Shown here one piece after another: positions 6,578 to 26,007 of a stretch of 26,007 bases of DNA. The notes under the pieces are model-generated. The model saw nothing but the letters and a program-made list of their open reading frames with translations. It was not told the origin of the DNA and searched no databases. The stretch is taken from assembly GCA_040007555.1 (NCBI GenBank), contig JBDTUW010000001.1, positions 1 to 26,007 on the forward strand, read 5' to 3'. The DNA comes from Acidobacteriota bacterium. Its GTDB lineage: Bacteria; Acidobacteriota; Blastocatellia; RBC074. Numbering within the stretch: position 1 is the stretch's first letter; each line of letters starts with the position of its first letter. Made by a program: the position numbers and the translations under genes.

Positions 6578-8908
6578 TCACCGTCCCAATCGGATTCTCA
6601 GGCCACCCCGAAAGAGACGCGGCGCGCCGATCGTCTCGATTGGGGTTCTGCCTACGGCGTAGCGCTGATTGAGCACATTCTGCACAGCAAAGAAGGCATC
6701 GACAGTTTTCACCAGCCGTCTTTCGGCCATGAGGTCAATCAAGCTGAAGCTATCCAGCGGGAGACGATTCTGGTCGTCATCGAACTGCCTGCCGGAGGCA
6801 CGGAATTGCATGGCTGCGGTGATATACCTCGGATTGGAATACACCGTCTGCAATGTGAACTGATGCTGCGGCACCTGCGGAATCCAGAGCCCGACGAGAC
6901 GCGAGTCCTGCGGTGCCTCCAGAACGGTCGTATCCGAAAAGAGATATCCGGCGGTCAGATGCCAGTCTTCGGCCAGGCGAAGGTCTGATTCGATCTCGAT
7001 CCCTCGTGACCGCGTCCTGCCCAGATTCCGACGCTCGCGCGTGATCAGCGTCGGTGTAACCGTCAGTGTGAAGTTCGAAATTGGATTCACAGTCTCAGTC
7101 CAATACCCAGTCACGCGTGAACGCATCCGATCACCAACTTCCCAACTGGCACCCGCCTCACCGCCAGTCAAACGCTCGGCTTCGAGTCGTTCATTGGCCA
7201 CCGTCAGCGTGTCCCCAACTCGAAACGAACGGTATAACTCGTTCAGGGTAGGTGCGCGAAAGGCGCGATAGGCGGCGGCTCTGAGAGTTACGCCTTCACC
7301 GACGTGATAGAGGACGGCCACACGTGGACTGAACGCATCCTCGCTTCTCTCATCAAAGAAACGTGGTCTGACGACACCTGTCGCAAAAACCCGCTCAATC
7401 GAATAGGCCGATGAATCCCTCCAGTGATCGTAGCGAGCGCTGACCGAGACCAGCCAACGCGAAGTCAGAGAGATGATATCCTGCGCGAAAAAGCCACGCC
7501 GCCCTTGCCGGCCACCTGCGCTGACCAGTGAGGTTGGGATGCCATTCGTATAGACCTGCTCATCGCTGACGCCTCGAACACCGCGCAGATCCACACCGGC
7601 TAACAAAAGATGTTTCTCAGTGGTGAGACGTGACCAGGTAAACGAAAAGCCGGCGTCGCGCGAGGGAACTGCCTGCAAACGCGTCAGTGTCTCGCGGGCG
7701 CGGTCGGCCGTGACTGCGGTAAAGCTCTGGTGGAAACGCTGCTGGTTTCCAAAGAGGGAAAACTGCCAATTGCTCTTGTCCGGGCTTTGGAGCCGAAAGC
7801 CTGCAGCGGCAAACTCGCCGGTGGTGTCATTCCTTTGTACCGGCGTACCGTTCTTGCGGTCCTCGTCGAAAAGAGCCCCGCGCACAAAGACCGAGTTAGG
7901 CGCCTTGCCGGCTGTGCCTCCCCAACCTTTGGCGAGGCGCAGGTTAAGAGATCTGTGTTTCGATGCGGCATATTCATCGATCGGTCCTCGCCGTTCGGGA
8001 GCGACGATAAAGTAGCCGTCCGTCCGGGTCGCCTCACCGCTGAGATTGATCGACCAGTCATGCCAGGTGCCACCAGCAAACAAGCTGAGATCGGATGTGT
8101 CGTGGTTGCCGTAGCTGACTTCCGCATTGAGCACTGGTGCGGAGGGCGTTCGAGTAATGAGATTGATAACCCCGCTCAGCGCGTCAGACCCATAGAGGTC
8201 AGAGCTGCCGCCGCGGACGACCTCAACCTGTTCAACAGCGGCACGGGGAATACGATCCCAATAGACCCAGCCGCCGAAAGCATCGTTGAGCGGGAGACCA
8301 TCGGCGAGCACCAGGGTTCGGCTCGCACCACTTGCACCTGCTCCTCGTAGCGAGACACCCTGAGTCGTCGGGTTGGCGACGAGGCTGCTTGATCGGCGAA
8401 AGATGCTGAACCCGGGGACCTGCCGAAGCAGATCATCGAGCGTCTGCGCCGCCGCGTTCTCTACGTCTCGCGCACCAAGGACGGTGACACTTACGGGAAG
8501 CTCCTCAAGTCTGCGCTCGACTCGCGCTGGAGTGACCGTGACAACGTCGGGCAGCACGGGAATGGCCAGCGCCCAATCCACGACCAGGTCGCTGCGCGGT
8601 TCGACGGTGACTCGTTTGACCTGTTGGGCAAAGCCTCTTGCCTCTGCTCGGAGCAGATAATCGCCAGGTGCGAGAGCGAGGCGATAGCGTCCAGAGCTGT
8701 CCGTCTGGGCCGTGACCTCCGGGCGATCGCCGGCGGTTGCGAAAATGCTCGCTGAACCGATCGTGTCTCCCCGTTCATCCTTGACCTGACCCGAGACAGC
8801 GCCCTGATTCTGCTGACTTTGTTGAGCTCCAGCCTGCGAGCTACCGGAAGTGGAGGACACCAGCAGGAACGTGGTGAGAATGATGGATAACGGCGTATTG
8901 AGGAGCAT
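6578..8908 (-). CDS. TonB-dependent outer-membrane receptor with N-terminal carboxypeptidase-regulatory-like domain
   Basis: Signal peptide; G.V.D..G...T...G.Y.L beta-sandwich; TonB-box-like DVVTVT; plug motifs DLLRQVPG, VLADGLPLND, VEVVRGGSSDLYGSDALSGVINLIT; C-terminal barrel F.VQNVLN..Y...GAPRLFRGGLRIRL. Confidence 0.92.
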   Translation of the reverse strand: MLLNTPLSIILTTFLLVSSTSGSSQAGAQQSQQNQGAVSGQVKDERGDTIGSASIFATAGDRPEVTAQTDSSGRYRLALAPGDYLLRAEARGFAQQVKRVTVEPRSDLVVDWALAIPVLPDVVTVTPARVERRLEELPVSVTVLGARDVENAAAQTLDDLLRQVPGFSIFRRSSSLVANPTTQGVSLRGAGASGASRTLVLADGLPLNDAFGGWVYWDRIPRAAVEQVEVVRGGSSDLYGSDALSGVINLITRTPSAPVLNAEVSYGNHDTSDLSLFAGGTWHDWSINLSGEATRTDGYFIVAPERRGPIDEYAASKHRSLNLRLAKGWGGTAGKAPNSVFVRGALFDEDRKNGTPVQRNDTTGEFAAAGFRLQSPDKSNWQFSLFGNQQRFHQSFTAVTADRARETLTRLQAVPSRDAGFSFTWSRLTTEKHLLLAGVDLRGVRGVSDEQVYTNGIPTSLVSAGGRQGRRGFFAQDIISLTSRWLVSVSARYDHWRDSSAYSIERVFATGVVRPRFFDERSEDAFSPRVAVLYHVGEGVTLRAAAYRAFRAPTLNELYRSFRVGDTLTVANERLEAERLTGGEAGASWEVGDRMRSRVTGYWTETVNPISNFTLTVTPTLITRERRNLGRTRSRGIEIESDLRLAEDWHLTAGYLFSDTTVLEAPQDSRLVGLWIPQVPQHQFTLQTVYSNPRYITAAMQFRASGRQFDDDQNRLPLDSFSLIDLMAERRLVKTVDAFFAVQNVLNQRYAVGRTPIETIGAPRLFRGGLRIRLGR

Positions 8909-8953
8909 GAGCCCTTTCCAGAGGTGCGTGAGAGTGGATATTAAATCTGGATT

Positions 8954-8968
8954 TGAAGATAATCTTCA
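8954..8968. promoter_or_regulatory. Perfect 7-1-7 palindrome, candidate operator of the TonB receptor gene
   Basis: TGAAGAT-A-ATCTTCA, 46 nt upstream of the receptor ATG; adjacent AAATC-TG-GATTT palindrome at 8943-8954. Confidence 0.35.
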
Positions 8969-9015
8969 GCCGCGGCTCAAAAAGCAAGCGGCAACGCGTA
9001 TGACTGGAGGCCCAC

Positions 9016-9159
9016 TTGGAGACTATCAGGCGAAAGGTGTCGTCACCCTGGTCGGTAGCTGAGATCAGGGGGCAGATCGTTGGCGAAGTTCGATCGTGGT
9101 GTCGCGGAGCGGCTCTTCATGATGACCTGACCCTGGTGGTGGTTAAGATCCGGGACTAA
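9016..9159 (+). pseudogene. C-terminal remnant (or 47-aa microprotein) of a SpoIIE/PP2C-type phosphatase
   Basis: Frame +1 reads ...SVAEIRGQIVGEVRSWCRGAALHDDLTLVVVKIRD*, the typical DDxTxvvvk end of PP2C/SpoIIE domains; in-frame stop at 9001 upstream; GGAGG (9006-9010) sits 5 nt before TTG 9016. Not in the ORF track. Confidence 0.55.
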
Positions 9160-9182
9160 ACCTCCGCAGCAGCATACGGGGG

Positions 9183-9788
9183 TCAGACTTTAATTCTCCG
9201 ATTAATCTCTTCGAGGTATTCCTGCGCCAGATTCTGATCCTTGATCGAGCCGAGGAGTGCTCCGGAAATCGCCGACAACAGCCACTGAAGCTCCTGTTCC
9301 GCGCGATTGACTGGAGCAACTCGCAGATTCAATTGCACCTTTGCGCAATCGTAAGGAACTCCAAGAGCACGTCCATCCAGCGGCGAGAGTTGAAAATAGA
9401 GAACCCCGATATGCCCCGTGGCGTCCGTTGACTCAGTTACCGGAAGCACCGCGGACTCGGGGGTACCGGCAATCCGCGCCGCGTAGTATGGGGGCGCGTC
9501 GGGTGGTGTCCCAAATGCGCTCTGAATCGACGCCAGCGTTGCCTTTACGGAGTGCGTAGTCCTTGGACGTCGTCCGGCGCCGATGACACTGAAGTCGCCA
9601 ACGAAAGCCAGGTGGCCGTTGATGATCCCACCTGCCGTTGGTTGAAATCGGTAATCGTATCGGCCGCCTGGCACTTCGATCTCACCGACGAACTCATCGC
9701 CGCGGAGGAGCGCGTGAATCGAGTGTAATCGCTTCCTGGGGGCCCCAACGGCCTTTGCGCGAATTGTCTGGCTTTGCATCGAGCCCAT
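9183..9788 (-). CDS. Hypothetical protein, 201 aa, co-oriented 5 nt downstream of the GMC gene
   Basis: Long ORF tightly coupled to the GMC stop; normal globular composition; no catalytic motif recognised. Confidence 0.7.
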   Translation of the reverse strand: MGSMQSQTIRAKAVGAPRKRLHSIHALLRGDEFVGEIEVPGGRYDYRFQPTAGGIINGHLAFVGDFSVIGAGRRPRTTHSVKATLASIQSAFGTPPDAPPYYAARIAGTPESAVLPVTESTDATGHIGVLYFQLSPLDGRALGVPYDCAKVQLNLRVAPVNRAEQELQWLLSAISGALLGSIKDQNLAQEYLEEINRRIKV

Positions 9789-9793
9789 TCCTC

Positions 9794-11497
9794 TTACAGG
9801 TTGCCCCGTTTGGTTTCGTCGACAATATACTCGCAGGCTCGCATTGTGAGAGCCAGGATGGTCAAGGTAGGGTTCTGGTTCGCCGAATTGATGAACGCTG
9901 CCCCGTCGGTCACAAACACATTCCTTACGTCGTGCATCTGATTGAACTTATTGAGGACGGATCGCTTGGGGTCGTCGCCCATGCGGGCAGTCCCGAGTTC
10001 GTGGATGATCCGTCCTGGCGCGGTCATTCTCCCTCCGGTGTCCGTCACCTCTGCGCCTGCAGCGCGGAGGATTTCCTCACTGGTCTCGGCAGCGTCCTTC
10101 GCCATTTCGCGTTCGTTGTCAGAATGCTGGATGTGGATTTTTAGCGCCGGCACACCCCAGGCGTCGACTACCCCGCCCGGATCGATCTCCGCGAAGTTCT
10201 CAAACCGTGAAAGCATCGCGGCGCGCGTCGTCATACTTACCGGAGCAGTGTAGTAACGACGCACCTGGCGCTTGAAGTCACTGCCAAAGCCTGGCAGGTT
10301 TCGAGCGACGCCCGGGAAAATCCCGGTGCCTGCCCCGCATTCAAAGCCATATCCACGAAGAAACCTCGGGTGCTGTGTCTTCTTGTCCAGATTACGGAAG
10401 CGAGGCACAAAAAGCCCCGACGCTTTCCCGTCTTCATATTCGGGTGTTCGTCCTTCGAGGACCTTGAAGAACCCGCTCGCCCCGATACCGCCGAAATGAT
10501 CAACCAGGTAATGCCCAAGAACGCCCGAGGAGTTGCCCAAACCGTTTGGATATTGTCGAGATTTTGAGTTGAGCAGCAGGCGGGTCGACTCCAGCGTGGA
10601 AGCCGCGACAATGATCACCTTTCCAAACGCCTCCCGCTCCTGATACGTCACCCGATCGACGAACGCGACACCTTTCGCCTTGCCGGTCCTGGTATCAACG
10701 ATGAGCTCTCGAACGACTGAGTTGGGGCGCAGGGTTAGGCGCCCCGTAGCCTTTGCTACTGGCAGCGTCGAAGCCACGGAATTGAACATGGCGCCAACGT
10801 CACAGCCGTTGCCGCAGTGACCACAATAATGGCAAACAGCGCGACCGGACTTCTGATGTACGGGTTTCGAGGCCGTCAACATGGCGACTCTCGAGACGAT
10901 TGCAGGGCGGCCCGTTTTCTCGGACCCGCGCCTGAGCATGTGCTCGCCACAGGTCAGCTTCATCGGCGGGAGAAACTTGCCGTCCGGCTGAAACCACAGA
11001 TTGTCCTGGTTGCCACTGACTCCAATGAACTCTTCGGCGCGATCGTAGTAGGGGGCGATCTCAGCGTAGCTGATCGGCCAATCGACATCGAAGCCGTCTT
11101 GACTGGCAGCCTTGAAATCGAGATCCGAGAAACGCCACGAAAGGCGGCCCCAATGCAGCGTCTTACCACCAACTATCCTGGCTCGGACCCAGACAAATGG
11201 TTTGCCTGGATCAGTCGTATATGGATGCTCAGTGTCCTTAACATAGAAGTGGCGGCTATACGCCGAGGCGGTGTCCTGCATCCATTGTTCATTCTGCTTC
11301 CAGCCGGGCGGGCCCGCACCACGGTACATCATCTCGTAGGGCCACTTGTGCGAGGTAAAGTCCCTCGCCGGATCGACCGGTGGGCCAGCCTCGAGCACCA
11401 GCACTTCAAACCCGGCCTCCGTCAACTCCTTGGCGGCCATCCCGCCCGAGGCGCCCGAGCCGACAATGATTGCGTCGTAGGTCTTTTGCCTTTGCAA
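9794..11497 (-). CDS. GMC-family FAD oxidoreductase (glycoside-3-dehydrogenase / gluconate-dehydrogenase-like large subunit)
   Basis: YDAIIVGSGASGG Rossmann motif, RARIVGG.TLHWGR, WPISY.EIAPYY..AE, Cys cluster CHYCGHCGNGC, HELGTARMG, NPTLTILAL. Start set at TTG 11497 (GGAGG 5 nt upstream) instead of 11575. Confidence 0.9.
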   Translation of the reverse strand: MQRQKTYDAIIVGSGASGGMAAKELTEAGFEVLVLEAGPPVDPARDFTSHKWPYEMMYRGAGPPGWKQNEQWMQDTASAYSRHFYVKDTEHPYTTDPGKPFVWVRARIVGGKTLHWGRLSWRFSDLDFKAASQDGFDVDWPISYAEIAPYYDRAEEFIGVSGNQDNLWFQPDGKFLPPMKLTCGEHMLRRGSEKTGRPAIVSRVAMLTASKPVHQKSGRAVCHYCGHCGNGCDVGAMFNSVASTLPVAKATGRLTLRPNSVVRELIVDTRTGKAKGVAFVDRVTYQEREAFGKVIIVAASTLESTRLLLNSKSRQYPNGLGNSSGVLGHYLVDHFGGIGASGFFKVLEGRTPEYEDGKASGLFVPRFRNLDKKTQHPRFLRGYGFECGAGTGIFPGVARNLPGFGSDFKRQVRRYYTAPVSMTTRAAMLSRFENFAEIDPGGVVDAWGVPALKIHIQHSDNEREMAKDAAETSEEILRAAGAEVTDTGGRMTAPGRIIHELGTARMGDDPKRSVLNKFNQMHDVRNVFVTDGAAFINSANQNPTLTILALTMRACEYIVDETKRGNL

Positions 11498-11556
11498 AAT
11501 TGCCTCCGGATAGATTGGCGATGATTCAATAGTCTTGAGAAGAACCCGGCAAGCAG

Positions 11557-11585
11557 AAACTAGCACAGCCCACATGCCGGATCAA
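11557..11585 (-). promoter_or_regulatory. Candidate sigma70 promoter of the GMC operon
   Basis: Minus strand TTGATC-N17-TAGTTT with TG one base before the -10 (extended -10); supports the TTG start at 11497. Confidence 0.4.
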
Positions 11586-11754
11586 GGTGCACTCGCCCAT
11601 GCTTCCGTGCGCGATTCGCAGCGCGCCAGGTCTGTGTTTCACACCTACTTCCAGGAAGAAGGACTCTGCGGCTGCGCAGTGCAATGAAACATCGCAGCTA
11701 TCCAGAGGGCTACCGGACGGAGGGTCTGGGGCCGCCGCCGGCGGGCAAGGATTA

Positions 11755-11846
11755 GGGGGAAGGGGAGACGGGGAGGGGAGACTCGGTTGCGCCATCAGTT
11801 GAATGGATTGCCCATCTCCCTGTCTCCCCTGCCCCTTGCTTCTCCC
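11755..11846. repeat. G-rich/C-rich imperfect inverted repeat with quadruplex-type G-runs
   Basis: GGGGG-AA-GGGG-AGAC-GGGG-A-GGGG at 11755-11778; arm 11756-11775 matches the reverse complement of 11816-11835 at 18/20. Confidence 0.6.
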
Positions 11847-11859
11847 ATCGCGCGAGTTT

Positions 11860-12123
11860 ATGATTTTCACGGTGCCAAGAGAGATCAGAATCGAGATCAA
11901 CAGCCGGGATGCCTTCTGGCGGAACGCGTTCAAAGTTGAATGGGACTTCCAGTATCCGCAGCGTAAATTGAGCGAAGAGACGCCGGGATTCTTTTGCATT
12001 CCGGAGAGTTGGCTGCCCGATGTTGAACGTGTCGGTAAACAGTGTTTCTCGAATGTAAAACTGGCACCGAGTGATCCTGGACGACGGAACATTTTCCGGC
12101 TGATCCTTTCGCGGCAAAAGTGA
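11860..12123 (+). CDS. Small hypothetical protein, 87 aa (MIFTVPREIRIEINSRDAFWRNAFKVEWDFQYP...)
   Basis: Fills otherwise empty space, co-oriented 54 nt upstream of the Tat-subunit gene; protein-like composition from the second Met; the track's upstream 19 codons are the C-rich repeat; weak RBS. Confidence 0.5.
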   Translation: MIFTVPREIRIEINSRDAFWRNAFKVEWDFQYPQRKLSEETPGFFCIPESWLPDVERVGKQCFSNVKLAPSDPGRRNIFRLILSRQK

Positions 12124-12177
12124 TCTCACTCGCATTGGTTGCCAGGACTCAGGAAAAAAAGGAAAGGGAACGCAACG

Positions 12178-12777
12178 ATGTCAGACGATAACAGTGTCTC
12201 GCGACGTGATGCTCTCAAGGGACTGGCGATCGGCCTCAGTCTCCCAGTGCTGAATACCAATGCACTCGCGCAGCAGGGTCATTCCCACGAGGGTCACGGT
12301 GCCTCCACACAGACTGCGGAGGTAAAGGCCGGGCCACCAAAGTTCTTTAACGCACAGCAGATGACGCTGATTGCGACGATCTCAGAGTTGATCATTCCGA
12401 CCGACGACCACTCACCCGGTGCCATCGCCGCTGAAGTCCCTTCATTTACCGATTTGATGGTCAGCGAGTCTCCTGCCGAGACCAAGAAACTCTGGACCGA
12501 TGGCCTGGCCGCCGTCGATGCCCTCAGCCGAAATAAGAATCAGGCAGCATTCGACAAGGCGACTGCCGCTCAGCAGATCGCACTCCTGAGCGAAATCAGC
12601 AAGAATGAGAAAAGCCCGCAGACTCTTGAAGAGCGCTTCTTCCGCGCCATCAAGAATATGACCATCGATGGTTACTACACATCGAAGGTCGGCATCCACC
12701 AGGACCTGCAGTACAAGGGAAACACGTACCTCAAGGAATTCAAGGGGTGCACACACCCGGAACACATTAACGGTTAG
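12178..12777 (+). CDS. Gluconate 2-dehydrogenase subunit 3 family protein (Tat-exported partner of GMC enzymes)
   Basis: Twin-arginine signal SRRDALKG, His-rich linker, family motifs FF...Q..LI..I.ELIIP.D..SPGA..A.V..F, FF..IKNMTIDGYYTS.VG; start set at ATG 12178. Confidence 0.85.
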   Translation: MSDDNSVSRRDALKGLAIGLSLPVLNTNALAQQGHSHEGHGASTQTAEVKAGPPKFFNAQQMTLIATISELIIPTDDHSPGAIAAEVPSFTDLMVSESPAETKKLWTDGLAAVDALSRNKNQAAFDKATAAQQIALLSEISKNEKSPQTLEERFFRAIKNMTIDGYYTSKVGIHQDLQYKGNTYLKEFKGCTHPEHING

Positions 12778-12858: not shown

Positions 12859-15849
12859 CTAGATGCGATACTTTCTCATAAGCAGGAAGGTGTAGACTTC
12901 GGCGCCGAGCGCGAGTATCCCGCGTACGACCATGAGCGTGGATAATCCGAATTGCTGAAAGATCAGGCCGGCGACTTGTGGGAAGATGAGGTCTGACGAG
13001 TCTACACCCAGTTCGAGGATACCCATCGTCCTCCCGCGGCGTGCGAGATTAAAGCTCGAGACTTTGGCGGCAACCGCACCCCAGGTTGGCTTGAATGCGG
13101 CCTTTCCGATCTCGTCGAGGCCTCGCGCGAATCCGAGCATGACTCCAAAGAACACGCTCCCGGTAAAGAAGGACGTGACCCAGAATACCACTGAAGTGAC
13201 GATGCTCGAGATCGACCTGAGCGCGATCACCTTTCCGGCACCGATGCGATCCGCCACCCAGCCAAAAAATGGACCGAAGAAGAGCGGAATGAACATCTCG
13301 GCGATGAGTTTGATCCACCATAGTGCCTTGGCCGTCACTGAGAGCTTGACTGCAAGTATGATGAAGAACTCGCCGGTCACCATATACGCCGGTGCAGTCA
13401 GGACAGTGCCAAGAAAGGCGAATGCCCAGACACTCGGGGCCTTCTCGGTTGGCGCCTCGACAATGTCCTGGTGGATTTCCGGCTGTTTCTTTTTCGACTT
13501 TTCTTTCTTCTTCTCCTTGATAAAGATCATGACGAGGACGACCGACACTGCCGAGAAAGCGGTCGACAGCAGGAAGATCATCGTCAGCGTCTTCCGAAGG
13601 GCTAACCCATCGACCAAGTCTGGCAGGTTGTCGAGAGGTACTTCGCTGAGCTTGACCTGACGTTCCTCGACTCGAATGATACGTTGGCTGGCGACCTCCG
13701 CTGGAATCGATTGTTCGCCCGCTCGTCCGATGATGCGCTCGACTTGTCCTGTTGGCCGGGAGGTGTCTTCGATGATGGCTACTCTCGCGTTGATCGTTGG
13801 ACTCGCTATAAAGACAGCGAGCAGGACAGGCAACAACCAGATTGTAAGAGTCTCGCCAATACTACCCGATGTCGATTTTGTGGTTGTGTACCACGAATAC
13901 GCCTTTGCGATGTTCTTTTCGTCCGTATGATCGGCAATCATCGCCGAAGCCGAAGGTCCTTTTGCGGAATCGGCGATGCCGCGAATGGCGCTTGCGATAA
14001 AGAGAAGCGGAAGATTGGCAACCGCAAATAGCAGGCTGACAACGGTGCGAGTTACGAGCGACAAGACGAATATCTTCTTTTTCCCAAAACGATCCGCCAT
14101 TCCCCCAAAAAGCGGTCGAAGCGCCAGCGGTACGACGTTCTGGATCAGTACCAGCCCCATCACAGAACTGATCTTCAGATTGAAAACCAGCAGCGCGTAC
14201 AGGGGAACCCCGATCTTAACCAACCCGCCCGAGACTCGCGAGAGGAAGGCCTCTGCCATGAGTGCAATCACAACAGGGCTGAAGACGCCACCTCCCTTCT
14301 CCTCCGCCTCGGCGACCACCGTCGGGAAATATGCCTCGCCGGCGGCAACGGGAGCGGGCGCGCTTGGAACCACAACGGGTCTGACAGAGAGAAGGCCGGT
14401 CGCCTTCTGGATGACATTTCCGAAGACTCCGCCGTTGACACCGGCGGCGGCTTCAAGTTCCGCGGCAAAATGCAGCGCAGTCGGCTGCCGCTGGGCAGGC
14501 TCCTTTGACAGGGCGCGGTTGACTACGGCCGCGACGCTCTCGTCAAGATCCGGCCGACTCTCCGAGAGATCAGGTGGGGCGAAACTAATGTGTGCCTGCG
14601 CCATCTCGGCACGCGTGGCTGCGTTGAAGGGGAGCGCGCCGGTCAATACTTCAAAAAGCATGACGCCGAGAGAATAGACATCGGATCGCGAGTCCAGTGG
14701 GCGGTTGAGCCACATCTCCGGCGACATGTATGCCGCTGGTCCTTCCGCGCTCGCGACGCCTGCCATGGTTCCGCCTGCGCCCGCGCCCGCATCGAGTTTG
14801 GCCAGTCCGGTGCTGCCAACTTTGACCACCTCGCGGCCATCCACCAGTCGCTCAATGCGAATCGTGTCCGGAGTTACATCGCGAAGTACGATCCCACTCA
14901 AATGGGCCGCGTGTACCGCACCGCAGATCTGATTGAAAATACTCACCACTCGAGAGAGGGTCAGTCCTCGCTCAGCCTTTATCAGATCCCGCAGTGTTTG
15001 CCCGCTGAGTAACTCCTCGACAATATATACGGCGCCATCCGGCGAGGTAACAAAGTCAAATATCTGGACAGAATTTGGATGACGGATTCGCGTGGCCACC
15101 AGGGCTTGACGCCGGAACCGGTCGAGCGCCTGCCGGTTGTTTATCAGCGAAGGTCGCAGGATTCGGATCGCGACAGTATCGCCAAGAGCAATCCGCCGCG
15201 CGCGGTAAAGAGCGCCAAGTGAATCGTGACCGAGCAGTGCCTCGAGCCGGTAACGGCCATCAAGCGCGAGACCCTGGGATCCCACCACTTCGGCCGGCGC
15301 TGAAGGCAGCGCCAGCTCACCGGTTGCCTGGACCGAGTAGGCGGAGCGTGCCACAACTGGTGGCTGCGCTGGTGCCCTCGGTGGAGAGTGAGGAACGTCG
15401 AGTCTGACCTCGGCGGGGTCTCGCACCGGCTCCTTTTTTAGCGGCACAGCCTGATAGACAAGCTTCGTACGGCCGATCTCGATCTGGTCGCCCACGCGCA
15501 ACGCGTGTTCGCCAGGCCCAAGACGCTTGCCATTGATCAGGACGCCATTGGTGCTTTGAGTGTCGCTGAGGAAATAGTGGCCGTCCTGAAACTTGATTTG
15601 CGCGTGATGGCGGCTGGCGGCCTTATCTGAGAGGACAATAGTGTTGTCCTGCGCGGCGCCAATCGAGACGAGCGCCCCCGTCAGAAGCAGCTCGCGCTGC
15701 TTCCCGTCAGGCAGATGCAGGATGAGACGCGACGCCTGCGAAGACCGGGCCGGTCTTGAAGAAGCGGCCACAATGAGGCGAGTGCCGTCGGTCGTGCAGA
15801 ACTGTTCGTTATCAGCGTACTCGTGGTGGCAAACCGAACACAGTTTCAA
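12859..15849 (-). CDS. Fusion protein, 996 aa: zinc-ribbon-like leader, FHA domain, Ser/Thr pseudokinase, 12-TM MFS transporter
   Basis: TTG start with GGAG RBS; CxxC...FCxxDG (aa 4-22); FHA aa ~41-133 ([14 protein letters not shown]); Hanks fold aa ~200-468 (HPN, YMSPE, SDVYSLG..LFE.LTG..PF) with catalytic motifs altered; MFS aa ~524-996 with motif A in both halves ([22 protein letters not shown]). Confidence 0.9.
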
Positions 15850-15961: not shown

Positions 15962-17524
15962 CTACTTCTTGCCCTTCTTCTTCTTCCCGCCATTGCCCGC
16001 CGCTGCCTTCTCCCCGGTCGTGCTACTCGCGACTACGGGTGACGGCCCGGACGCATTCATCGCCCGGTTGATATCGGACCAGCGATAGACAGCGATACGG
16101 TAGTTGCACTGATCCGCGATCGCGACATAGGTCTCACCCGATGCTGCGTCAGTATGGCTCGCAATCGCGTCGGGCGAGCAGAAGTATCCGGGTGGATTTG
16201 CCTGTCCTGGGATAATGGAGCCGTCCTTGACCCTTTGCTGAAGGGCGACATTGGTCTTGTCTTCAAAATTCACCAGCGGTGGATGACCGAAGAATCCGCG
16301 ATAGGCGGTAGCCTTGCGCGGGCGCGCCGAGTAGGCCGCAATATCCGAATTGAAAATGTCCGGGCGGGCCAGCTCAAATATCTGAATCTGTCCGACGCTC
16401 TCGTCAACGGCCAGCAAGTGGCTGCCACCGACAATCGTCAGTCCCTCGATCGCGCCGGAAAATACTGACGAGCCTCCGGGCAGGCCATCCGCTCCAAGCG
16501 ATTTCCCGACCAATTGGTTTTTGTAGGCACCGGTTTCGAGATCGAATACCTGGACAACCGCATCCTTCTCACTGGCGATATAGAGGTTTCCGCGAGTTTC
16601 GTCGAATGCGATTCCCTCGCAGCCGTGGAGATACGTGCTGCCATCGGGACGGGCCTGTTCGAACTTAAAGCTCGGATCCAGCCTGAAGTCAGATGTGAAC
16701 CGCTTCACCTCATTCAGATGTGCATCTACCAGGTAGACGCGGCCCTGAGCATCCACTGCAATTCCACCGAGTTTGCCAAAGCCTTGTTCGCCGAAACGCG
16801 TACCTTTGAATTGAAAGTCATAAGGTCCGAGGGGCTTGCCCTTTTCGTTTACGGCACCAGGAGTTGGCGGCTCAAAGAGATACGCCAGATTGAGAACCTG
16901 GTCGGTGACGAAGACCTTGTCATCGGGTGTGACCGCGATGTCGACCACTTCTCCGCCAAAGACGCCGTGACCGAACTCACCGAGATAGGTCCGCGATTGA
17001 ACGTCCCATATCTGAATGCGCCTGTTCTTCGCGTCTGTTGCGAGCAGCCAGCCATTCTTGAGAAATGCGACACCGTCCGGTTTGTCGAAGTCTGCCGCAG
17101 TCTTGCCGGGGCGGCCACTACCGAGGACCGAGTGAGGCGTGACCTCAAGGCTCCAAACAGACTTTGCCTGAGGAGCAGCTGCAGCGACCGGCTGCGATGG
17201 AGCGGGGCGAGCAGCTACCGGCGGAGCCGCCTCAGGTGCGGCGGGTGCCGCGACCGCGGCGGGTGCCGCGACTACGGCGGGTGCCGCGACTACCGCTGGT
17301 GCCGCGACTACGGCGGGTGCCGCGACTGCGGCGGGTGCCGCGACTACGGCGGGTGCCGCGACTGCGGCGGGTGCCGCGACTGCCTCCGCCTGTTTCTTCT
17401 TTCCTTTCCCCTTCTGCTTCTTTTGAAGCGAAACGGGTGTGGCATTCGACGTGCCGGGCAGAGCAGTCGCCGCGAACGAGCCGAAGAGAACGGAGATGAT
17501 GAGGAACTTAAAGTATGGTTTCAT
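15962..17524 (-). CDS. Secreted NHL-type beta-propeller protein with Ala/Pro/Val repeat linker and Lys-rich ends
   Basis: GAGGAGG RBS; signal peptide; (VAAPA[AV])x8; about six blades ([57 protein letters not shown]...IADQCNYRI). Confidence 0.85.
17238..17381. repeat. Coding tandem repeat, 8 x 18 bp (consensus RCGGCGGGTGCCGCGACT)
   Basis: Eight consecutive units counted directly; encodes [12 protein letters not shown] on the minus strand. Confidence 0.95.
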
Positions 17525-17689: not shown

Positions 17690-18916
17690 CTATTGGCTTC
17701 CAGCGCGATGCTTCCGCAGTACGTCCGCGCCCAGTATCCTGTCGAGAGGAACCAGCTTGAAGTTTTGATTACCCTTGTCGTTGAAGCCGTCCTGCGCGAC
17801 AAAGACTCCATGCGGGAACGCTGGACCGAGGGGCGCCATGAGGACATCGATGCCATCAGTCTCCTCCGCGCCGTCAACCGATTCCGACGGGATGATACGG
17901 AACGTCTTAACGAAAGCGTGCCCTGCCTCCCGGCGATACACGACATAGGTGTGATTGCCCTGACTCGAGGCCATAAGGAATCCGGTGCCGTCCGGTCCAT
18001 AAGCAATCGCTAGTCCTTCGACATCGGCGACCAGGTGGCCGCCCGGGCCGGTCTTATCTACCTGCTTTCTCTCCTGACCAGTCTCCGGCTCCGCTCCGTA
18101 CTTCCAGATCCCGACAGCTTCTTCTGAAACGTAGAAGTGACCCAGCTCATCGTCGGCGACGCAGCCTTCGACAACGCTGCCTACATTGAAAGCTCTCACC
18201 TTCTTGCCGTCGACCTTGCCTTGTCCATTATCAAAAAGCTCCCACTGTTCAACATTACCGGTCTTGCCGGTGACGAAATAGTAGACCTTTTCCGTTTTCG
18301 GATTGCGGTACATGCAAGAGCCGTAGGTCGCCATCGTGGTGATAGTTCTGGCCGCGACATTCTCAAGCTGACGCGTCTGTGGGTTGACGCGAAAGATTGA
18401 GATCGAATTGTCGGTGCGATTCCCACCCGTGACGAGGGCAATTCTCTCTCCACCGAGCTTGAATCCAGCCCGAAGATCGACGTTGTCAATCATACCGGCC
18501 TTCAGATACTGCAGTTCCTTACCGGAAAGATCGTAAACCGCCAGGCCGCCGCGCTTGTCAGTGCCGATGATCGTGCTCTGGGAAATATCGTTCGGATTGA
18601 CCCAGATGGCCGGATCGTCGGCCGCATCACCAGGGCTTGGCACTGGGTGCGTTTCTACAGAAGCTGTCACGCTTTCAATTGTCCGACCGCTGGGATCTGT
18701 GGTGTTGCCAGCTGTCATACTGACCGAGGGCGCCGTATTCTGCCTTTGAGTCAAGCTACTGGACGAACTCGATTTGCTGCTCTTTTCGTGCTTTTTCTCT
18801 TTCGGCTTGTCCTTCGCCTTCTCGTCCTGACCAAATACCGCCATCGAAAGCAGCGTCATTAATACCAGGGCGAGCGAGGCGACCATCTTTCTCTCATTCC
18901 TTCTACTGACGGTCAT
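17690..18916 (-). CDS. phy: Secreted beta-propeller (Ca-dependent, Bacillus PhyC-type) phytase
   Basis: Signal peptide; hallmark motifs [71 protein letters not shown]. Confidence 0.93.
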
Positions 18917-19024: not shown

Positions 19025-19867
19025 TCAGGAATGGTCGAGAATAAACCTGGAAATCCGGTCACCGCCACCTGGTACACCCTTAAACCCCGGAAAACAATTG
19101 ACTTCTATTACCGAGTAGCCCTTTTTGGTCTTCACCAGATCGACACCGTAGAGCTGCAGCCCAAAGAGTTCTCCGCACCGTCGAACCAGATCCTCCAGTT
19201 CGGGGTCGCTCTCGACCGGTATCCCGTCCTTCTCGGCGCGGGTCGTTGCCGGAAATATTCGCTTGATGGTATGAACGAAATCACCGACAGCATACGCTTT
19301 GTAGTCGTAGGGTTCGTGTTCTTCGTACTCCTGGGCAAAAACCAGGCGATCGCCGAGTGCGGTGCCGTCCTCGCCTCCGTCGTCATCCGCGGGAGGTGTT
19401 TCAGCGGTGCGTTTCTCGAGGAGCCGGTCGAAGTCGGCCTCGGTCAGGCAGATCTCGATGCCCTGACCTCGTCGCCCTCGATACGGTTTAACGATGACAG
19501 GCATCTGTTGAACGATCGGGCGCAATGTCTCGATATTGTCCGTCACAAACGTCCTGGGCGTGGGAATCCCCGCCTGCAAAAGCATGGTGCAGGTCAGGAC
19601 CTTGTCGCGGACCTTCATGGTCGCCGGATACTGGTTGAGCAGTGTGCAGCCGCGAAAGTGGGCGGCCGCAGCCAGCGACTCCGCAAGTGGAGAATGGGAT
19701 TTGAAGAGATAAAGATCATAGTCGAAGGCGAAGTTCCCGAGGTCGACAAGCCCGGTTCGCTCGGTGACGATCTCAACATCGGCGCCACTCGACTTCAGTC
19801 CTTCAATGATTTGATACGTCACTGAACTTGGACTTCTTGGCGGTTCCATCAGAAAGCAAATGCGCAT
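19025..19867 (-). CDS. ATP-grasp enzyme 4 (ITPK1-like motifs; would be auto-annotated RimK-like), 280 aa
   Basis: [65 protein letters not shown]; start set at ATG 19867 (GGAG RBS) instead of 19936. Confidence 0.88.
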
Positions 19868-19945
19868 TGTTGGTCTCCAGGTCGGTTTGTGGAAAACATC
19901 AGGTTGACTATCACGGGAGTGCCCCGTCCTATTCAATTCAATATG

Positions 19946-19991
19946 CGATGGTCATTATTCGATGGCAATTATTCGATGGCAATTATTCGAT
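19946..19991. repeat. Tandem repeat, 3 x 14 bp plus 4 (CGATGGCAATTATT)
   Basis: CGATGGTCATTATT, CGATGGCAATTATT, CGATGGCAATTATT, CGAT; overlaps the MFS stop codon. Confidence 0.9.
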
Positions 19992-21224
19992 CGGCCGGAT
20001 TACTGGTTGCGGAGTTCCCGCGGGAGCCGGCGTGTTGATTCTCAATGCATAGACCTCGCCGATCAATGCCAGAAGCAGTCGCACCGCAAACAATACAGGT
20101 ACTCCCCAGAAATGCCACAGCAGGCCGCCCAGGATTGGTCCGAGGGTCTCTCCCAGACCCTCCCCGAGACTGAGGAAGCCCATCGTTCTCGCTCGCCTTC
20201 GCCGGTCGTGATTTGACATCTGGGCCATGAGCGCGCCCCAGGCAGGGCGAAACGCTGCCTTCCCCAGACTGTCCGCAATACTCGCGACAGCCATCCCACC
20301 GAATGATGGCAGCAGCCAGTAGAGCAGGGACGAAACCGAATTCGCAACTCCCCGCACCATAAGGACCGCCTTGCGACTGACATTGTCAGAGAACCAGCCG
20401 AAGAGTGGACCGGAGACGAGCAGTATTGCGACCGAAAGGGCGTAGATCAAACTTGTCTGAGCGACACTCAATCCGGCGTACTCGGTCGCGAGCAGCGGGA
20501 AGAGCTGCTGTACCATATGGGCCGTGGTGGCCAGCAGGAATCCCAGGACAGCCACCGAGAAGAGCGTTCTTCGTCGCGGTTTCGCGTCTGTCATCAATTC
20601 CGCCGCCTGCGCGGCCATCTCATCCCCAGAGCGTTCTTCTTCATGCCTCCGGGGTGAGCGAACGTATCGGACCACGACATACAATGGCAGGACCGACAGC
20701 GTGAATGCGATGAGAAAGACCGTCGAGTAATTGGTTCCGGTCCAGACCAGCAGCAGCCCGCCAAGCGCCTTCCCGATCGAACCTGCGACCATCTTGGCTG
20801 TCGAATACCACGCGAATGAAGAGCCCATGGTTCGCGGTTCGCTGTTCTCCGCAATCAGCGCATTGACCGATGGGTCTCGTAAAGACTCTGAAACTCCGTG
20901 GAGCAGCCGAATGCTATAAACCTGCCACGGTAGCGTTGCGAACGCGAGCAGGAGTGCGACTGCGCTCCGTAACGCGATTGCAACGGTCAGACTGAGTCGC
21001 AGCCCAACCCTATCGGCAACCCATCCCATCAGTGGCTTGAACACCTGCTCAGCGATGAGATTGAGAGAAAAGAGAAAACCAACCTCGGTCAGGGTCAGTC
21101 CCAGCTTGCGGTAGGCATAGAGCGGCAGCGCGAAGCTGATAATCCCGAAACTCAACCGCGAAGAGAAGCCTTCCGAGAGAATGGCAACGAGCGATGGGTT
21201 GATTGGTTTCCGGCCCGAAAGCAT
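19983..21224 (-). CDS. MFS transporter, 413 aa, paralogue of the MFS domain in 12859-15849
   Basis: About 12 hydrophobic segments; motif [11 protein letters not shown] and [10 protein letters not shown]; colinear shared motifs with the fusion protein. Confidence 0.92.
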
Positions 21225-21284: not shown

Positions 21285-22133
21285 CTAGTCCGCTGCCACG
21301 CCCCGGGGAACGCTCGGTGCGCCGGGAGACCTCAGTTCAAACCTGCCCTGGGCGTAGCCATCGATGTAATCGGCAATCATGATCGCCGCATCTGGCACGC
21401 CCTTGTAGCCGGGGAAGTAGTTGACGTCGACAACAAACGGGCCGTCCGGACTTTCGATTATGTCCAGACCATAGAGACCGAGACCGCACACTTCACCGAC
21501 GCGAAGAGATATCTGCCGAATTTCCTCGCTGATGGGCACTGGCCGGCCCGCTACCGCAAAGCTCGTTTCGGAGAACGGCTTTTGAACGCCAAACACCTGG
21601 TCACCAACAACGTAAACCTTCAGGTCCTCACCCGAACCGGGTTTGAATTCCTGAACGATAACCGGGAAGTCCGGAGCCGTGTGCTTTGAGAGCTGCTCGG
21701 GGTTATCCACCTTGATAATTCCCGCGCCTCGATGTCCCATATAGGGCTTGATGATCAGCGAAGTTGTCGCGGCCAGATCTGCCAGAAGGGAGAAGTCCCC
21801 CGTCACCCAGGAACGCGGCGCCGGAACCCCAGCTTCACGCAAAAGCCTTGAGACGATGATCTTGTTTTGAGTCATTGCGCAGGAAGGGTACGGATTGAGA
21901 AGCCGCGCGCCCTGAGTGTAGAGCACCCCCGCCAGACCCAAAGACAGTTCAGTATGCGATTTCAGGATATAAAGGTCGTGCTCAACCTCGACCGCATCAC
22001 AGGGTGTGAGCACCTCCTCAGCGATACTCTCGACGATCTCGTAACCGCGCTTTCGCAGCAGATCATAGGCCTCAACCAAAATCGGACTTGGTACGGGTGG
22101 GACCCGACGGACGACTAGAAAAGACAGTTTCAT
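21285..22133 (-). CDS. ATP-grasp enzyme 3 (closest to ITPK1-type motifs), 282 aa
   Basis: [70 protein letters not shown]. Confidence 0.9.
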
Positions 22134-22153: not shown

Positions 22154-22972
22154 CTACGCCAGATATTCAACTGAAGGGCGACTTAAGTAATCAGTAATGT
22201 AGTCGGCCAGCCGCAGGCCGGCATCCGGAACGCCCTTGAATCCCGGGAAGGTATTAATGTCGACCACATATTCGCGACCGCCGCTGATGACGATATCCAG
22301 ACCGTAAAGATCGATCCCAAATGCTTCGCCGCAGCGATCGGAAATCTCGAGCATCGATGGGGTTAGTTCAAACGCCTCGCCAAGCTTGTCCTCGATTGTT
22401 CGCGCCGGCCAGACACGCCGGACGCCGAATGAGGAGTTCCCGATGCGATATATCTTGTAGTCGCGACCTTCCGGTTGATGATACCGCTGCGCAAAGAACA
22501 TCCCCTGGTCTTGAGACAGGGTCTCCAATTCCTCACGCGTCCGGACAATCTGGACGCCGCGCCCCTGCGATCCTCCCAGATAGGGCTTGACCACGAGCGG
22601 TCCCTCATCGAGCAGGTTGGCAAGCTGCGACGCCTCCGAGGCGATGAAGGCTTCCGGCGCCGGCACTTCAGCATCTGTAAGAATCCGGTTCGCGAGGACC
22701 TTATCCTTCATCTGGATGACGACTTCATAGGGATTGAGAATCCGCGCACCCGCGACGTCGAGAACCGAAGCGTAGGCGAGGGCGGCAGGTGTCCCCGCCT
22801 TGAGGACATACAAATCATAGTCGACATCAAGGCTCCCGACATCGATGGCGGAGTCGTCCGGATAGATGAATTCCAGGGAATGCCCACGTTCAGCGAGCTT
22901 TTCCCCGACATCCATCATAACCGAGCCCTCACGGCCCGGCTTTTTTCGCGTTGTCAACAGACCCACTCTCAT
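22154..22972 (-). CDS. ATP-grasp enzyme 2 (ITPK1-like motifs), 272 aa
   Basis: [73 protein letters not shown]; ATGA overlap with the upstream gene. Confidence 0.9.
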   Translation of the reverse strand: MRVGLLTTRKKPGREGSVMMDVGEKLAERGHSLEFIYPDDSAIDVGSLDVDYDLYVLKAGTPAALAYASVLDVAGARILNPYEVVIQMKDKVLANRILTDAEVPAPEAFIASEASQLANLLDEGPLVVKPYLGGSQGRGVQIVRTREELETLSQDQGMFFAQRYHQPEGRDYKIYRIGNSSFGVRRVWPARTIEDKLGEAFELTPSMLEISDRCGEAFGIDLYGLDIVISGGREYVVDINTFPGFKGVPDAGLRLADYITDYLSRPSVEYLA

Positions 22973-24062: not shown

Positions 24063-26007
24063 ATGGGATTGCGTGCGGAGCTTCATCTGACAGGAAATGG
24101 CGCATCCCAGGTCTATGTTCTCGACGTGCCTCGCCTCACGGTCGGTCGAACTCGCGAGAACCACGTGACCATTGCTGACCCGGCAATTTCTCGTCATCAC
24201 GCCGAGTTCATTCGCTTGGGCAACGACGTCCTTCTGCGCGATCTGGGCTCGACGAACGGAAGCTACGTCAATGGCCTCCGTATTTCCGAACAGCTGCTCA
24301 ACGATGCTGATATCGTCCGCTTTGGACCACAGGGTCTGGAATATCGATTCGCCGTGCTTGACGATAGCGGTGCGCTCCCGGCTAATGTCCAGCGGCGGGA
24401 GCCTACCGGCAGCCTCATCGAATCCCTTTCTGGCCGTCTGGTTTCCAGTCCCGGCGACGTCTGCGAAGACGCTAGTCTCCGCTGTGTACTCGCCGAGGCT
24501 TACCTCACGAAGGGTGACCATCGGGAGGCGCTCAGGCTTCTGACGCGATATGTCGACCCAGTCTCGCTGCTTGCACTTCCACTCGCCTATCGATCCAGTG
24601 TTCTGCTCTGGCTTGGACGAGCCTACGTCGAGGGTAAGCAACTCCCGCTCGCTCTCGAGACCCTCGAACGCAGTCTGAATCTCGCGACAAAAGAAGATGA
24701 CGAGAACGCCGTTGCCGAGGCCCACGCCTCAATTGGCAGGGCGTTTATGGGACTGAAGGACCTGCTCGCGGCGCGCGACAATCTCAACCGAGCGATGCTC
24801 ACCGCCAGACGCGGCGGCAACGCCCGACTTGGTGCTGAAGTTCATCTATGGCTTGGCAAGGTTGACTGGAAGGATGGCGATTTCGACGGCGCGCGTTACA
24901 ACTGGACGCGTGCGACGCGCTTGGCCGAGGGTCTGAATGCGCCGCTGCTCCAGGCCCGAGTTCAGCTTCAGCAGGCGTTCGTCCTTTACGCCGAAGGGAA
25001 GCTCAAGGAGTCGAGCCCGAGCTACGAGGCAGCGATTGAACGAATTCAGGCGATTGGTAACCTCCCCCTTCTGCTGAAGGCATACAGTAGCCATTCGAGG
25101 GTGCTGGTGAGACTGGGCCAGTGGTCAGCGGCCGAACGGCTCCTTGACGAACGCCTGACAATGGCGCGCAAACATAAGATTAATAAAGCGGAGGCAGTCG
25201 CCTTAACCGACAATGCGGAGCTCGAACTCCTGCAGGGCCGGTTGCAGGGAGCGGTGACTGCCATCGAAGCCGCGTGTGAAAGTCATGGTGAACATGTCTA
25301 CGCGCGGACACAAAGGATTCTGGGCCGCATCCTGATCGTTCGCGGGCAGGTTCAGGAAGGGATCCGCGCGCTCGACATGGGGCTTGTTGCCTCCCGCGAG
25401 AATGGAGCACTCGAGGAGCAGATTCTGATCGGTGTTGAACTGGCGCTTGCGCACCTCGATGCCGGTGATGTCGCCACGGCTCGCCTGCGTCTTGATGAAG
25501 CCGAGGCGACGACGCCTCTGGATCCCGCGCTGACTCTCATGGGGCGCGCGCTTTTTGCACGAGGCAGCGTTTTCGCGGCAGCCAACCAGCTGGCCGAGGC
25601 AAATCGCTCATTCGCACAGTGTCTCGCGATCTTCCAGACGACTGGTGATCCCTATCGAGTCGGCCTCTGCCAGGCCGCGATAGGTGAACTCCGCGCGATG
25701 GCGGGCCGTGACGATTCCGCTCGCGCCCATTTTGAGGAGGCTCAGCGGCAGTTCGTCAAGCTTGGGGCTGTCGCCGAATTGAAACGGGTGGAGGCGCGTC
25801 TTGCCTCGGGCGGCATCGCGCACGCCGCACCACAAATGACGCAAATGACGACTCGGCTGTCAAAGACGGCTCGGCTTTCGCTCGAGCACTTGACCGCCAC
25901 ACTCAACACCGGTGCCCTCACTTCGCCGACTGCCTCGAAGATTCTGGTCGTTGTCGCCAATGATGATCTGGCGCTCCTGCTGCTCAAGGGTCTTGAAGTG
26001 GAGAATT
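24063..26007 (+). CDS. FHA domain, TPR array and start of a receiver-like domain (partial, more than 648 aa, runs off the window)
   Basis: Hand translation of frame +3 from ATG 24063 (GAGG upstream, in-frame stop at 24000) gives no stop to the window end: VGRTREN...ISRHHA...DLGSTNGSYVNG...DADIVRFG (FHA); roughly ten TPR-like helical repeats by eye (e.g. LLWLGRAY, HASIGRAF, HLWLGKVD, RILGRIL); ends KILVVVANDDLALLLLKGLEVEN. Missing from the ORF track because it lacks a stop. Confidence 0.88.
   Translation, partial: MGLRAELHLTGNGASQVYVLDVPRLTVGRTRENHVTIADPAISRHHAEFIRLGNDVLLRDLGSTNGSYVNGLRISEQLLNDADIVRFGPQGLEYRFAVLDDSGALPANVQRREPTGSLIESLSGRLVSSPGDVCEDASLRCVLAEAYLTKGDHREALRLLTRYVDPVSLLALPLAYRSSVLLWLGRAYVEGKQLPLALETLERSLNLATKEDDENAVAEAHASIGRAFMGLKDLLAARDNLNRAMLTARRGGNARLGAEVHLWLGKVDWKDGDFDGARYNWTRATRLAEGLNAPLLQARVQLQQAFVLYAEGKLKESSPSYEAAIERIQAIGNLPLLLKAYSSHSRVLVRLGQWSAAERLLDERLTMARKHKINKAEAVALTDNAELELLQGRLQGAVTAIEAACESHGEHVYARTQRILGRILIVRGQVQEGIRALDMGLVASRENGALEEQILIGVELALAHLDAGDVATARLRLDEAEATTPLDPALTLMGRALFARGSVFAAANQLAEANRSFAQCLAIFQTTGDPYRVGLCQAAIGELRAMAGRDDSARAHFEEAQRQFVKLGAVAELKRVEARLASGGIAHAAPQMTQMTTRLSKTARLSLEHLTATLNTGALTSPTASKILVVVANDDLALLLLKGLEVEN

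Follow-up and report, generated by a model that had tools for sequence, protein, structure and literature searches.

The window considered here, the whole of a 26,007-nucleotide stretch from an Acidobacteriota bacterium (GTDB lineage Bacteria; Acidobacteriota; Blastocatellia; RBC074; assembly GCA_040007555.1, contig JBDTUW010000001.1), codes on its minus strand for a protein of 996 residues that joins a zinc knuckle, a forkhead-associated (FHA) domain, a dead kinase domain and a complete transporter of the major facilitator superfamily (MFS). Most likely, this protein is a transporter, or a transporter-like sensor, tied to protein-phosphorylation signalling. Its reading frame is uninterrupted over 12859-15849 (996 codons and a stop), with a TTG start codon at 15849-15847 and GGAG a few bases upstream. 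Aligned homologues share this start position, their first residue being M, V or L, and the full-length ones are 50-78% identical to the protein. Pfam recovers an FHA domain at residues 61-126 (E 1.3e-17, over the full profile, 1-67), a Pkinase domain at residues 200-455 (E 5.5e-29, above the cut-off) and MFS_1 from residue 535 (E 7.5e-24). A full-length AlphaFold2 model, built on an alignment of 84 sequences, has a mean predicted local distance difference test score (pLDDT) of 81 and displays an FHA sandwich, a bilobal kinase and 12 membrane helices within residues 525-994. The first-pass annotation, made from the letters alone and silent on the strand, had described a single reading frame joining a CxxC leader, an FHA domain, a Hanks-type kinase fold and an MFS of 12 transmembrane helices (TM1 to TM12), with linkers rich in proline and alanine between domains. 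All these parts are present according to Pfam and AlphaFold2, and both linkers (residues 136-195 and 485-520) are seen in the sequence and come out disordered in the model.

Because the window is a contig of a fragmented metagenome-assembled genome (MAG) of 1152 contigs, one might suspect an assembly chimera, or two genes read through in error. The domains meet at 14280-14450, which corresponds to the juxtamembrane tail of the protein, and this region is collinear in all orthologues. Public runs hold short pieces there, none of which crosses the whole junction; they consist of low-depth short contigs only. Nonetheless, two metagenome runs from the rhizosphere contain contigs that are 100% identical to the window and together cover the region piecewise (14188-14352 and 14355-66) without joints, which speaks for a continuous gene although no single piece spans it. 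A further run, marked 'RNA?', contained fragments 90-95% alike that come from relatives, and expression of this particular gene is not thereby demonstrated. Much stronger evidence comes from distribution. A protein database search returned 833 matches; the best 120 of them all extend over the full length, at 50-78% identity, with the same Pfam domains, and full-length orthologues are represented in more than 100 metagenomic protein clusters. In the window's GTDB family within the Blastocatellia, 47 of 87 genomes are matched at E <1e-220, and in a further four the gene is either fragmentary, at the end of a contig, or interrupted by stops. It is found on a closed chromosome of 9.5 Mb and on contigs of 1.1-5.7 Mb, among hosts from many independent studies, with one full-length copy per genome. 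For practical purposes the chimera is excluded: the same collinear protein recurs far too widely, and this objection, which the annotation had itself raised, is effectively refuted. Its other worry, that homologues might always be split genes, failed too, since the orthologues found are fused: there were no split ones in the genomes searched, and those genera of the family that are without the fusion are also without the cluster of ATP-grasp genes described below.

A scan of species-representative genomes placed the fusion, or a fragment of it, at 60 loci, with three further weak matches, to the kinase part only, in other phyla. By their labels, the fusion loci belong to Blastocatellia or Acidobacteriota, save for some MAGs that evidently bear a wrong name, and in a 300-genome sample of the phylum, with two candidates scored per genome, the fusion was not found outside the family. 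The odd labels deserve a word: MAGs at L052, L056, L060, L063, L069, L071, L074, L075, L090 and L092 are titled 'Heliomicrobium', 'Heliobacteriaceae' or 'Clostridia', probably taxonomic mislabels from bulk submissions. One copy, at L043 (G312:C11:71700-91600), contains about a dozen in-frame stops. We rejected its interpretation as a pseudogene: its neighbours, coding for an MFS, a GMC oxidoreductase, a TonB receptor and an FHA-TPR protein, are likewise split between frames, which makes an indel error in a long-read assembly the likelier cause.

The kinase domain (residues 196-470; 14440..15264, minus strand) is the part for which loss of function is most visible. It has the Hanks-type kinase fold (PF00069), aligns with Mycobacterium tuberculosis PknB (E 5e-41, 34% identity), and the full-length model retrieves kinases only in Foldseek, with a TM-score on the target of 0.8-0.89. 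The activation segment is of full length, with an APE-like SPE, while the characteristic motifs have become VAIR, LRD and STG, and the Gly-rich loop has a single glycine left. Against PknB, the beta3 lysine Lys40 is replaced by Arg229, the alphaC glutamate Glu59 by Gln248, the HRD histidine His136 by Leu322, the Mg-binding Asn143 by Thr329 and the DFG aspartate Asp156 by Ser346; the HRD aspartate, Asp324, is the only one of these catalytic residues retained. Replacement is not a quirk of this protein: overall, the five positions have lost their catalytic residues in 104-111 of 120 homologues. Among the 120 homologues the beta3 position is Arg in 111, the alphaC position Gln in 108, the HRD histidine position Leu in 108, the Mg-binding position Thr or Ser in 110 and the DFG position Gly in 111. 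As a control, the seven nearest kinase paralogues of the same genome are canonical at every replaced position. The domain thus reads as a pseudokinase throughout the family, which upholds the call made at first pass. Its identity to the consensus is nevertheless 0.75-0.86, and such strong conservation despite the lost catalytic residues indicates that it has been kept for a non-catalytic role.

Could it still be an atypical but active kinase, phosphorylating by way of Arg229 and the HRD aspartate, and the protein a true bifunctional kinase/transporter? The Asp324 position is Asp in 103 of the 120 homologues and the catalytic-loop lysine is present in 90; furthermore, eukaryotic kinases free of a beta3 lysine do work, WNK being the example cited in 10.1101/2025.01.12.632604. 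Yet the Gly-rich loop, the beta3 lysine, the alphaC glutamate, the Mg-binding asparagine and the DFG aspartate have been lost jointly and across the family, and in the present protein the catalytic-loop lysine is itself a threonine. Catalysis is therefore very improbable. What did persist is the surface by which PknB forms back-to-back dimers: its residues R10, L33 and D76 correspond to R199, L222 and D265, all invariant or nearly so, and the PDB matches include the PknB interface mutants L33D and D76A. The same residues occur in the ordinary paralogues, however, so that they tell us about ancestry, or about an interface that could be used, and not about a partner.

Ahead of the pseudokinase lie two modules and a flexible link. 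The 'CxxC leader' of the first reading turned out to be a conserved zinc knuckle, CPxC-x10-FCxx(D/H)G, in residues 1-24 (C4-x2-C7 ... C18-x2-D21; 15778..15849, minus strand). Its cysteine columns are invariant in the 87 sequences aligned there, D21 is D or H in homologues, and Pfam gives a weak match to Zn_Ribbon_1 at residues 4-19 (E 9e-4 with the segment isolated). The FHA domain proper extends over residues 38-135 (15445..15738, minus strand); it has the FHA fold (PF00498), with strands modelled at pLDDT about 90, and Ser79, Arg80, His82, Asn101 and Asn106 are conserved. In FHA domains the arginine of the 'GR' motif normally contacts the phosphate. Here this position is Ala65; it is Ala in 13 of the 14 closest homologues and Ser in the other one, while across the 120 it is Lys in 76, Arg in 18 and Ala in 14. 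There follows the first disordered linker (residues 136-195; 15265..15444, minus strand), where pLDDT falls below 50 over residues 138-166. On the far side of the pseudokinase, the juxtamembrane tail (residues 471-524; 14278..14439, minus strand; pLDDT 58-66) does not match any Pfam profile, even at E 10. It contains the motif K-A-T484-G-x-L-P, in which the threonine is found in 104 of 120 homologues, with Leu at +3. By its conservation, Thr484 is a candidate phospho-acceptor, the best one in the flexible segments.

The membrane part is the most conserved of all, with an identity to the consensus of 0.8-0.93. It comprises TM1 to TM5 (residues 525-681; 13807..14277), an insert (residues 682-747; 13609..13806), TM6 followed by a Lys-rich, disordered central cytoplasmic loop (residues 748-806; 13432..13608) and TM7 to TM12 (residues 807-996; 12862..13431), all on the minus strand. 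It has the make-up of an MFS (PF07690): 12 helices, six to each half, and a motif A that occurs between TM2 and TM3 and again between TM8 and TM9; G582, D586, G589 and K590 after TM2, and G863, D867 and G870 after TM8, are invariant. Every position that shows little or no variation in the wider MFS subfamily retains its residue here, including charged intramembrane ones and the signature DExGKAAFKPxWGA, which argues for an intact binding and transport site. A model of the MFS alone (pLDDT 85.6; predicted TM-score, pTM, 0.84) matches NorA, MdfA, FLVCR and other MFS proteins in Foldseek, with a TM-score on the target of up to 0.82; these matches are generic and give no clue to a substrate. By sequence, NorA is matched over the first four helices only (E 7e-5), there being no closer characterised transporter, and no NCBIfam MFS model comes anywhere near its cut-off. 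Inspected by eye, TM5 (residues 644-681) does not show the GP..GG of the DHA1 antiporter motif (G-x8-G-x3-G-P-x2-G-G).

The insert between TM5 and TM6 is peculiar to this family. About 65 residues long, beta-rich, with three strands at pLDDT 80-97, it is specific to the fusion clade and is without a Pfam match even at E 10. Provided that the N-terminal domains lie in the cytoplasm and that the Lys-rich loop following TM6 is on the same side, the insert has to face the periplasm, its predicted and probable location. In a maximum-likelihood tree built from MFS domains, the fusions form a tight clade (support 100/100), which a very long stem of 2.79 + 0.96 substitutions per site separates from all relatives.

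Genomic context gives the protein a setting. In 14 genomes from nine genera the gene order is the same, the fusion being the last member of a conserved cluster: a divergent FHA-TPR gene (scored where the fetched stretch reached that far), three ATP-grasp genes, a plain MFS, a fourth ATP-grasp gene, a phytase, sometimes an NHL propeller, and then the fusion. Within the window, the gene next upstream of the fusion codes for a secreted NHL or phytase-like propeller with a signal peptide (15962..17524, minus strand), found in only some of the orthologous loci. It is followed by a secreted beta-propeller phytase (17690..18916, minus strand; Pfam Phytase, E 4e-104; signal peptide), which adjoins the fusion or is one gene away in 14 of the 14 loci inspected. 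Then come, on the same strand, the ATP-grasp genes, assigned as RimK-like from sequence matches (19025-19936, 21285-22133, 22154-22972 and 22969-23799), and among them the plain MFS of 413 residues (19983-21224), a paralogue of the fusion MFS at about 31% identity and the sole other MFS in the genome that the fusion matches; it is devoid of the periplasmic insert. The FHA-TPR gene (24063..26007, plus strand), cut by the end of the window, has a canonical FHA domain (GR, SRHH, TNG). In an orthologous locus its product ends in a receiver domain and is followed, stop and start overlapping, by a gene of the mannitol-dehydrogenase family, a position that in the window would fall beyond the end of the contig.

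RimK/LysX-type ligases align with the ATP-grasp proteins from end to end (PDB, E 1e-10 to 1e-12), whereas ITPK1 matches the last 60 or so residues only (E 5e-7 to 2e-3); all four proteins lie below the NCBIfam cut-offs. Sequence searches thus favour a RimK/LysX-type ligase, though an ITPK1-type or other polyol/inositol-phosphate kinase may still be the right reading. The most conserved ATP-grasp gene has an orthologue in the same genera as the fusion, and is absent from the same five genera (0 of 9, 1, 6, 14 and 1 genomes). This is a pattern of co-inheritance at the genus level and not a statistical test, given the relatedness of the genomes. The core cassette reaches further. In another family of Acidobacteriota a related cassette unites four genes of the ATP-grasp type with a mannitol dehydrogenase and a plain MFS of this subfamily, and a 10.5-kb metagenome contig from an actinobacterium carries two ATP-grasp genes, a gene for a mannitol-dehydrogenase C-domain and a pseudokinase-MFS. 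The ATP-grasp/MFS/mannitol-dehydrogenase combination thus recurs in Blastocatellia, in another Acidobacteriota family and on an actinobacterial contig (window 19025-23799 and 24063-26007; L119:23-3612; L118:299-6161; L047:700-5633).

Some features of the surroundings stand apart. Two secreted propellers between genes for cytoplasmic ATP-grasp proteins and the fusion make an odd pairing with a biosynthetic-looking operon. Downstream of the fusion, the window (6578-12777) codes for a Gluconate_2-dh3 subunit, a GMC oxidoreductase, a 201-residue protein and a TonB-dependent receptor, a block kept in two other genera (L033:3-8324; L043:13130-19107); it may form an independent unit for oxidation and uptake of sugar acids, or have some link with the cluster. 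Next to the plain cassette of the other Acidobacteriota family lie genes for a SpoIIE/PP2C-type phosphatase and a DUF5916/CBM9 protein (L118:8743-9990 and L118:6149-8485). This hints that Ser/Thr phospho-control of the cassette extends beyond Blastocatellia.

While the analysis establishes the architecture, the family-wide loss of catalytic residues, the retention of MFS signatures, the topology, the synteny and the co-occurrence, what follows on the substrate, the phospho-site, the FHA partner, the direction of transport and the gating is inference. The 12-helix MFS would move the compound on which the adjacent ATP-grasp cassette works, probably a small molecule that is anionic and carries several modifications. 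The N-terminal part in the cytoplasm, with the zinc knuckle, the FHA domain and the dead PknB-like kinase, would be a regulatory docking module in which the pseudokinase offers a platform by the membrane. An unlinked, active Hanks kinase, to be sought among the about 30 ordinary ones that the genome codes for beside its single copy of the fusion, would phosphorylate a threonine of the flexible segments, Thr484 being the best candidate. The phosphothreonine would then be the ligand of an FHA domain, be it the one in cis or that of the divergent FHA-TPR-receiver protein, which is canonical; with Ala65 in the former, that of the neighbour is the plausible binder. Binding might then shift the position of the pseudokinase, or its dimer state, relative to the cytoplasmic face of the MFS, switching transport on or off. 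This scheme is modelled on MviN-FhaA (PMC12599244) and Rv1747-PknF (PMC3138270). A permease for the cassette's compound, coupled in this way to phospho-signalling, seems to us about as probable as all other explanations taken together.

Relatives with other architectures help to choose. The MFS part was searched exhaustively against 1.8 billion cluster representatives, which returned few full-length fusions and, below them, a tier of plain MFS at 31-37% identity. One relative (P0124) has two FHA domains and a pseudokinase on the same MFS subfamily. Another, of metagenomic origin (P0122, 988 residues), has the same MFS at 52% identity, periplasmic insert included, behind 490 or so unrelated residues with one predicted membrane helix and no Pfam match; it is either a domain swap or a metagenomic chimera. 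Within the tier at 31-37% identity, P0132 is a pseudokinase-MFS from Actinomycetota, where DFG is changed to SFG and HRD to HGD; there is no FHA domain, and the region of the insert remains unaligned. Like the fusion, this family has Pkinase N-terminal to an MFS_1 domain of the same subfamily (KAAFKPxWGA), has lost the DFG aspartate and belongs to an operon with RimK-like ATP-grasp genes; unlike it, it has neither FHA, zinc knuckle nor periplasmic insert. A common origin of the two was considered and rejected on the MFS tree. There, P0132 is nested among plain actinobacterial MFS (a 100/98 clade), the Acidobacterial fusions forming a separate clade (100/100), so that a dead kinase must have been fused to this MFS subfamily at least twice. 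The independent actinobacterial pseudokinase, furthermore, sits on the only MFS seen in the 10.5-kb contig of its cassette, which favours regulation of a real transporter; the convergence between the two phyla points to regulation of the transporter itself.

The P0132 family is small, and many of its relatives (P0296 and similar) display an N-terminal helix-turn-helix instead (PF13413/PF13560). Two members, P0276 and P0277, join pseudokinase, MFS and a C-terminal RimK-type ATP-grasp domain, which shows that physical coupling of the MFS to a ligase has been selected. This would suit a membrane scaffold, a metabolon in which pseudokinase and FHA domain recruit the soluble ATP-grasp enzymes, or the FHA-TPR protein, to an exporter without any phospho-switch, the product thus being channelled outwards, the more so as the bacterial pseudokinases YukC/EssB do act as scaffolds (PMC12599244). 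Still, conservation of the phosphate-binding residues Ser79, Arg80, His82 and Asn101 of the FHA domain, together with that of the tail threonine, suggests dependence on phosphorylation, and pure scaffolding is unlikely.

How novel is the architecture? The first-pass annotation did not recognise it, and this impression stands in part. FHA-pseudokinase-MFS proteins are real, and a literature search for kinase-MFS proteins found no paper that characterises them, only database names; two recent surveys of bacterial kinomes and pseudokinases do not mention the MFS. The bare combination is less of a novelty. The ESM Atlas already contains Actinomycetota clusters of 56-126 members with Pkinase and MFS_1, one of them automatically named 'bifunctional serine/threonine protein kinase/MFS transporter', and pseudokinase-MFS proteins exist in Actinomycetota as just described. 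The other kinase-MFS clusters of the Atlas are known from their database names, and may belong to other MFS subfamilies.

The main rival of a regulated permease is a transceptor or pure sensor. It is one of the two readings offered by the first-pass annotation, the other being that the cytoplasmic domains gate transport. On this view the MFS, a paralogue that has diverged from the operon's real transporter, would bind the same compound, perhaps aided by the periplasmic insert, and signal to the cytoplasm whether it is occupied or which conformation it has taken. By way of the N-lobe interface of PknB type, the pseudokinase would associate with an active Hanks kinase and switch it on allosterically, while FHA domains and the FHA-TPR-receiver protein relay the signal to control of the cluster. 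A plain paralogous MFS lies in the same operon at every locus; the very long stem of a tight clade is the pattern expected after a change of function; the predicted periplasmic beta insert is specific to the family; the dimer-interface equivalents are near-invariant; and FHA-bearing regulators are found at both ends of the cluster, the partner ending in a receiver domain. To be sure, the signatures of transport are all kept, with motif A present twice and the charged intramembrane residues in place, though known MFS sensors keep them too. The actinobacterial pseudokinase, associated with the only MFS visible in its contig, is harder to reconcile with a sensor, and the interface residues, shared with ordinary paralogues, reflect ancestry and do not designate a partner. 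A sensing function is possible but, in our view, less likely than a regulated permease. In its most explicit form, a bacterial transceptor that no longer mainly transports and that senses the metabolite at the membrane with the insert's help, where the dead kinase switches on an active Hanks kinase and the FHA-TPR-receiver protein relays to the ATP-grasp pathway, it calls for slightly more doubt.

Several points weigh against the regulated permease that we prefer. With alanine at position 65, the protein's own FHA domain may bind phosphothreonine in cis only weakly in this subclade. There is no kinase or phosphatase gene in the conserved cluster, be it in the window or at the orthologous loci. 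The long stem of the MFS and the plain paralogue in the operon would fit a sensor as well as a transporter. Prediction of a complex between two copies of residues 38-520 (FHA, linker, pseudokinase and tail) gave a score of 0.00; it is listed here for completeness, being uninformative and weighing neither way. Finally, there are no cultured isolates among the species-representative genomes bearing the fusion, the hosts being uncultured MAGs of soil Acidobacteria.

Whichever function prevails, the family is worth attention. A reader (the FHA domain), a platform (the pseudokinase) and a transporter (the MFS) are assembled in one polypeptide, a compact setting in which to learn whether control runs from the pseudokinase to the transporter, as a gate, or from the transporter fold to the pseudokinase. 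The plain paralogue next door is a natural control, and the actinobacterial fusion an independent replicate. The family also marks an undescribed cassette of ATP-grasp, MFS and mannitol-dehydrogenase genes that crosses phyla. A transceptor, if true, would provide a direct link from the fold of a secondary transporter to both Ser/Thr and His-Asp signalling.

Control of bacterial transport by Ser/Thr phosphorylation is known in very few cases, Rv1747 and MviN, neither of which is a secondary transporter. In MviN, the tail of the pseudokinase is phosphorylated by PknB and then bound by FhaA, which regulates the pathway (PMC12599244). MviN/MurJ (Rv3910), like the fusion, combines a polytopic transporter with a cytoplasmic, dead Hanks-type kinase domain, and its phospho-tail and FhaA would find their counterparts in the Thr484 tail and in an FHA domain in cis plus another in a neighbouring gene. 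By contrast, MviN is a flippase of the MOP superfamily with a C-terminal pseudokinase, whereas here the pseudokinase is N-terminal to an MFS. The MviN pseudokinase, of the ActPs3 family, has lost its activation loop, has degraded HRD and DFG motifs and reads VALT, where the present one has a full-length PknB-like fold (34% identity) with VAIR, LRD and STG; the fusion does not share the features given for MviN-type ActPs3 domains (PMC12599244). Moreover, its FHA domain is in the same polypeptide, unlike that of MviN, and peptidoglycan synthesis is not the pathway concerned.

Rv1747, an FHA-bearing ABC exporter, has its transport modulated via Ser/Thr phosphorylation by PknF (PMC3138270, PMC8339232). 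As in the fusion, N-terminal FHA domains and a disordered linker, phosphorylatable in Rv1747, precede the transporter. The position of the FHA domain matches, while the class of transporter and the kinase in the operon do not: Rv1747 is an ABC transporter without a pseudokinase and with its cognate kinase in the operon, whereas here there is an MFS, and the cluster is without an active kinase. The fusion may work like Rv1747 without being a member of its type. Other precedents concern sensing. E. coli UhpC, beside UhpT, and yeast Snf3 and Rgt2, beside the Hxt proteins, are diverged MFS paralogues that act as sensors alongside a real transporter and that carry or contact a cytoplasmic signalling module. 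UhpC, which has no domains fused to it, passes its signal to a histidine kinase, and Snf3 and Rgt2 use C-terminal tails and casein kinases; none of the three is known to have a fused pseudokinase or FHA domain. What the fusion has in common with them is paralogy to, and co-location with, a plain MFS.

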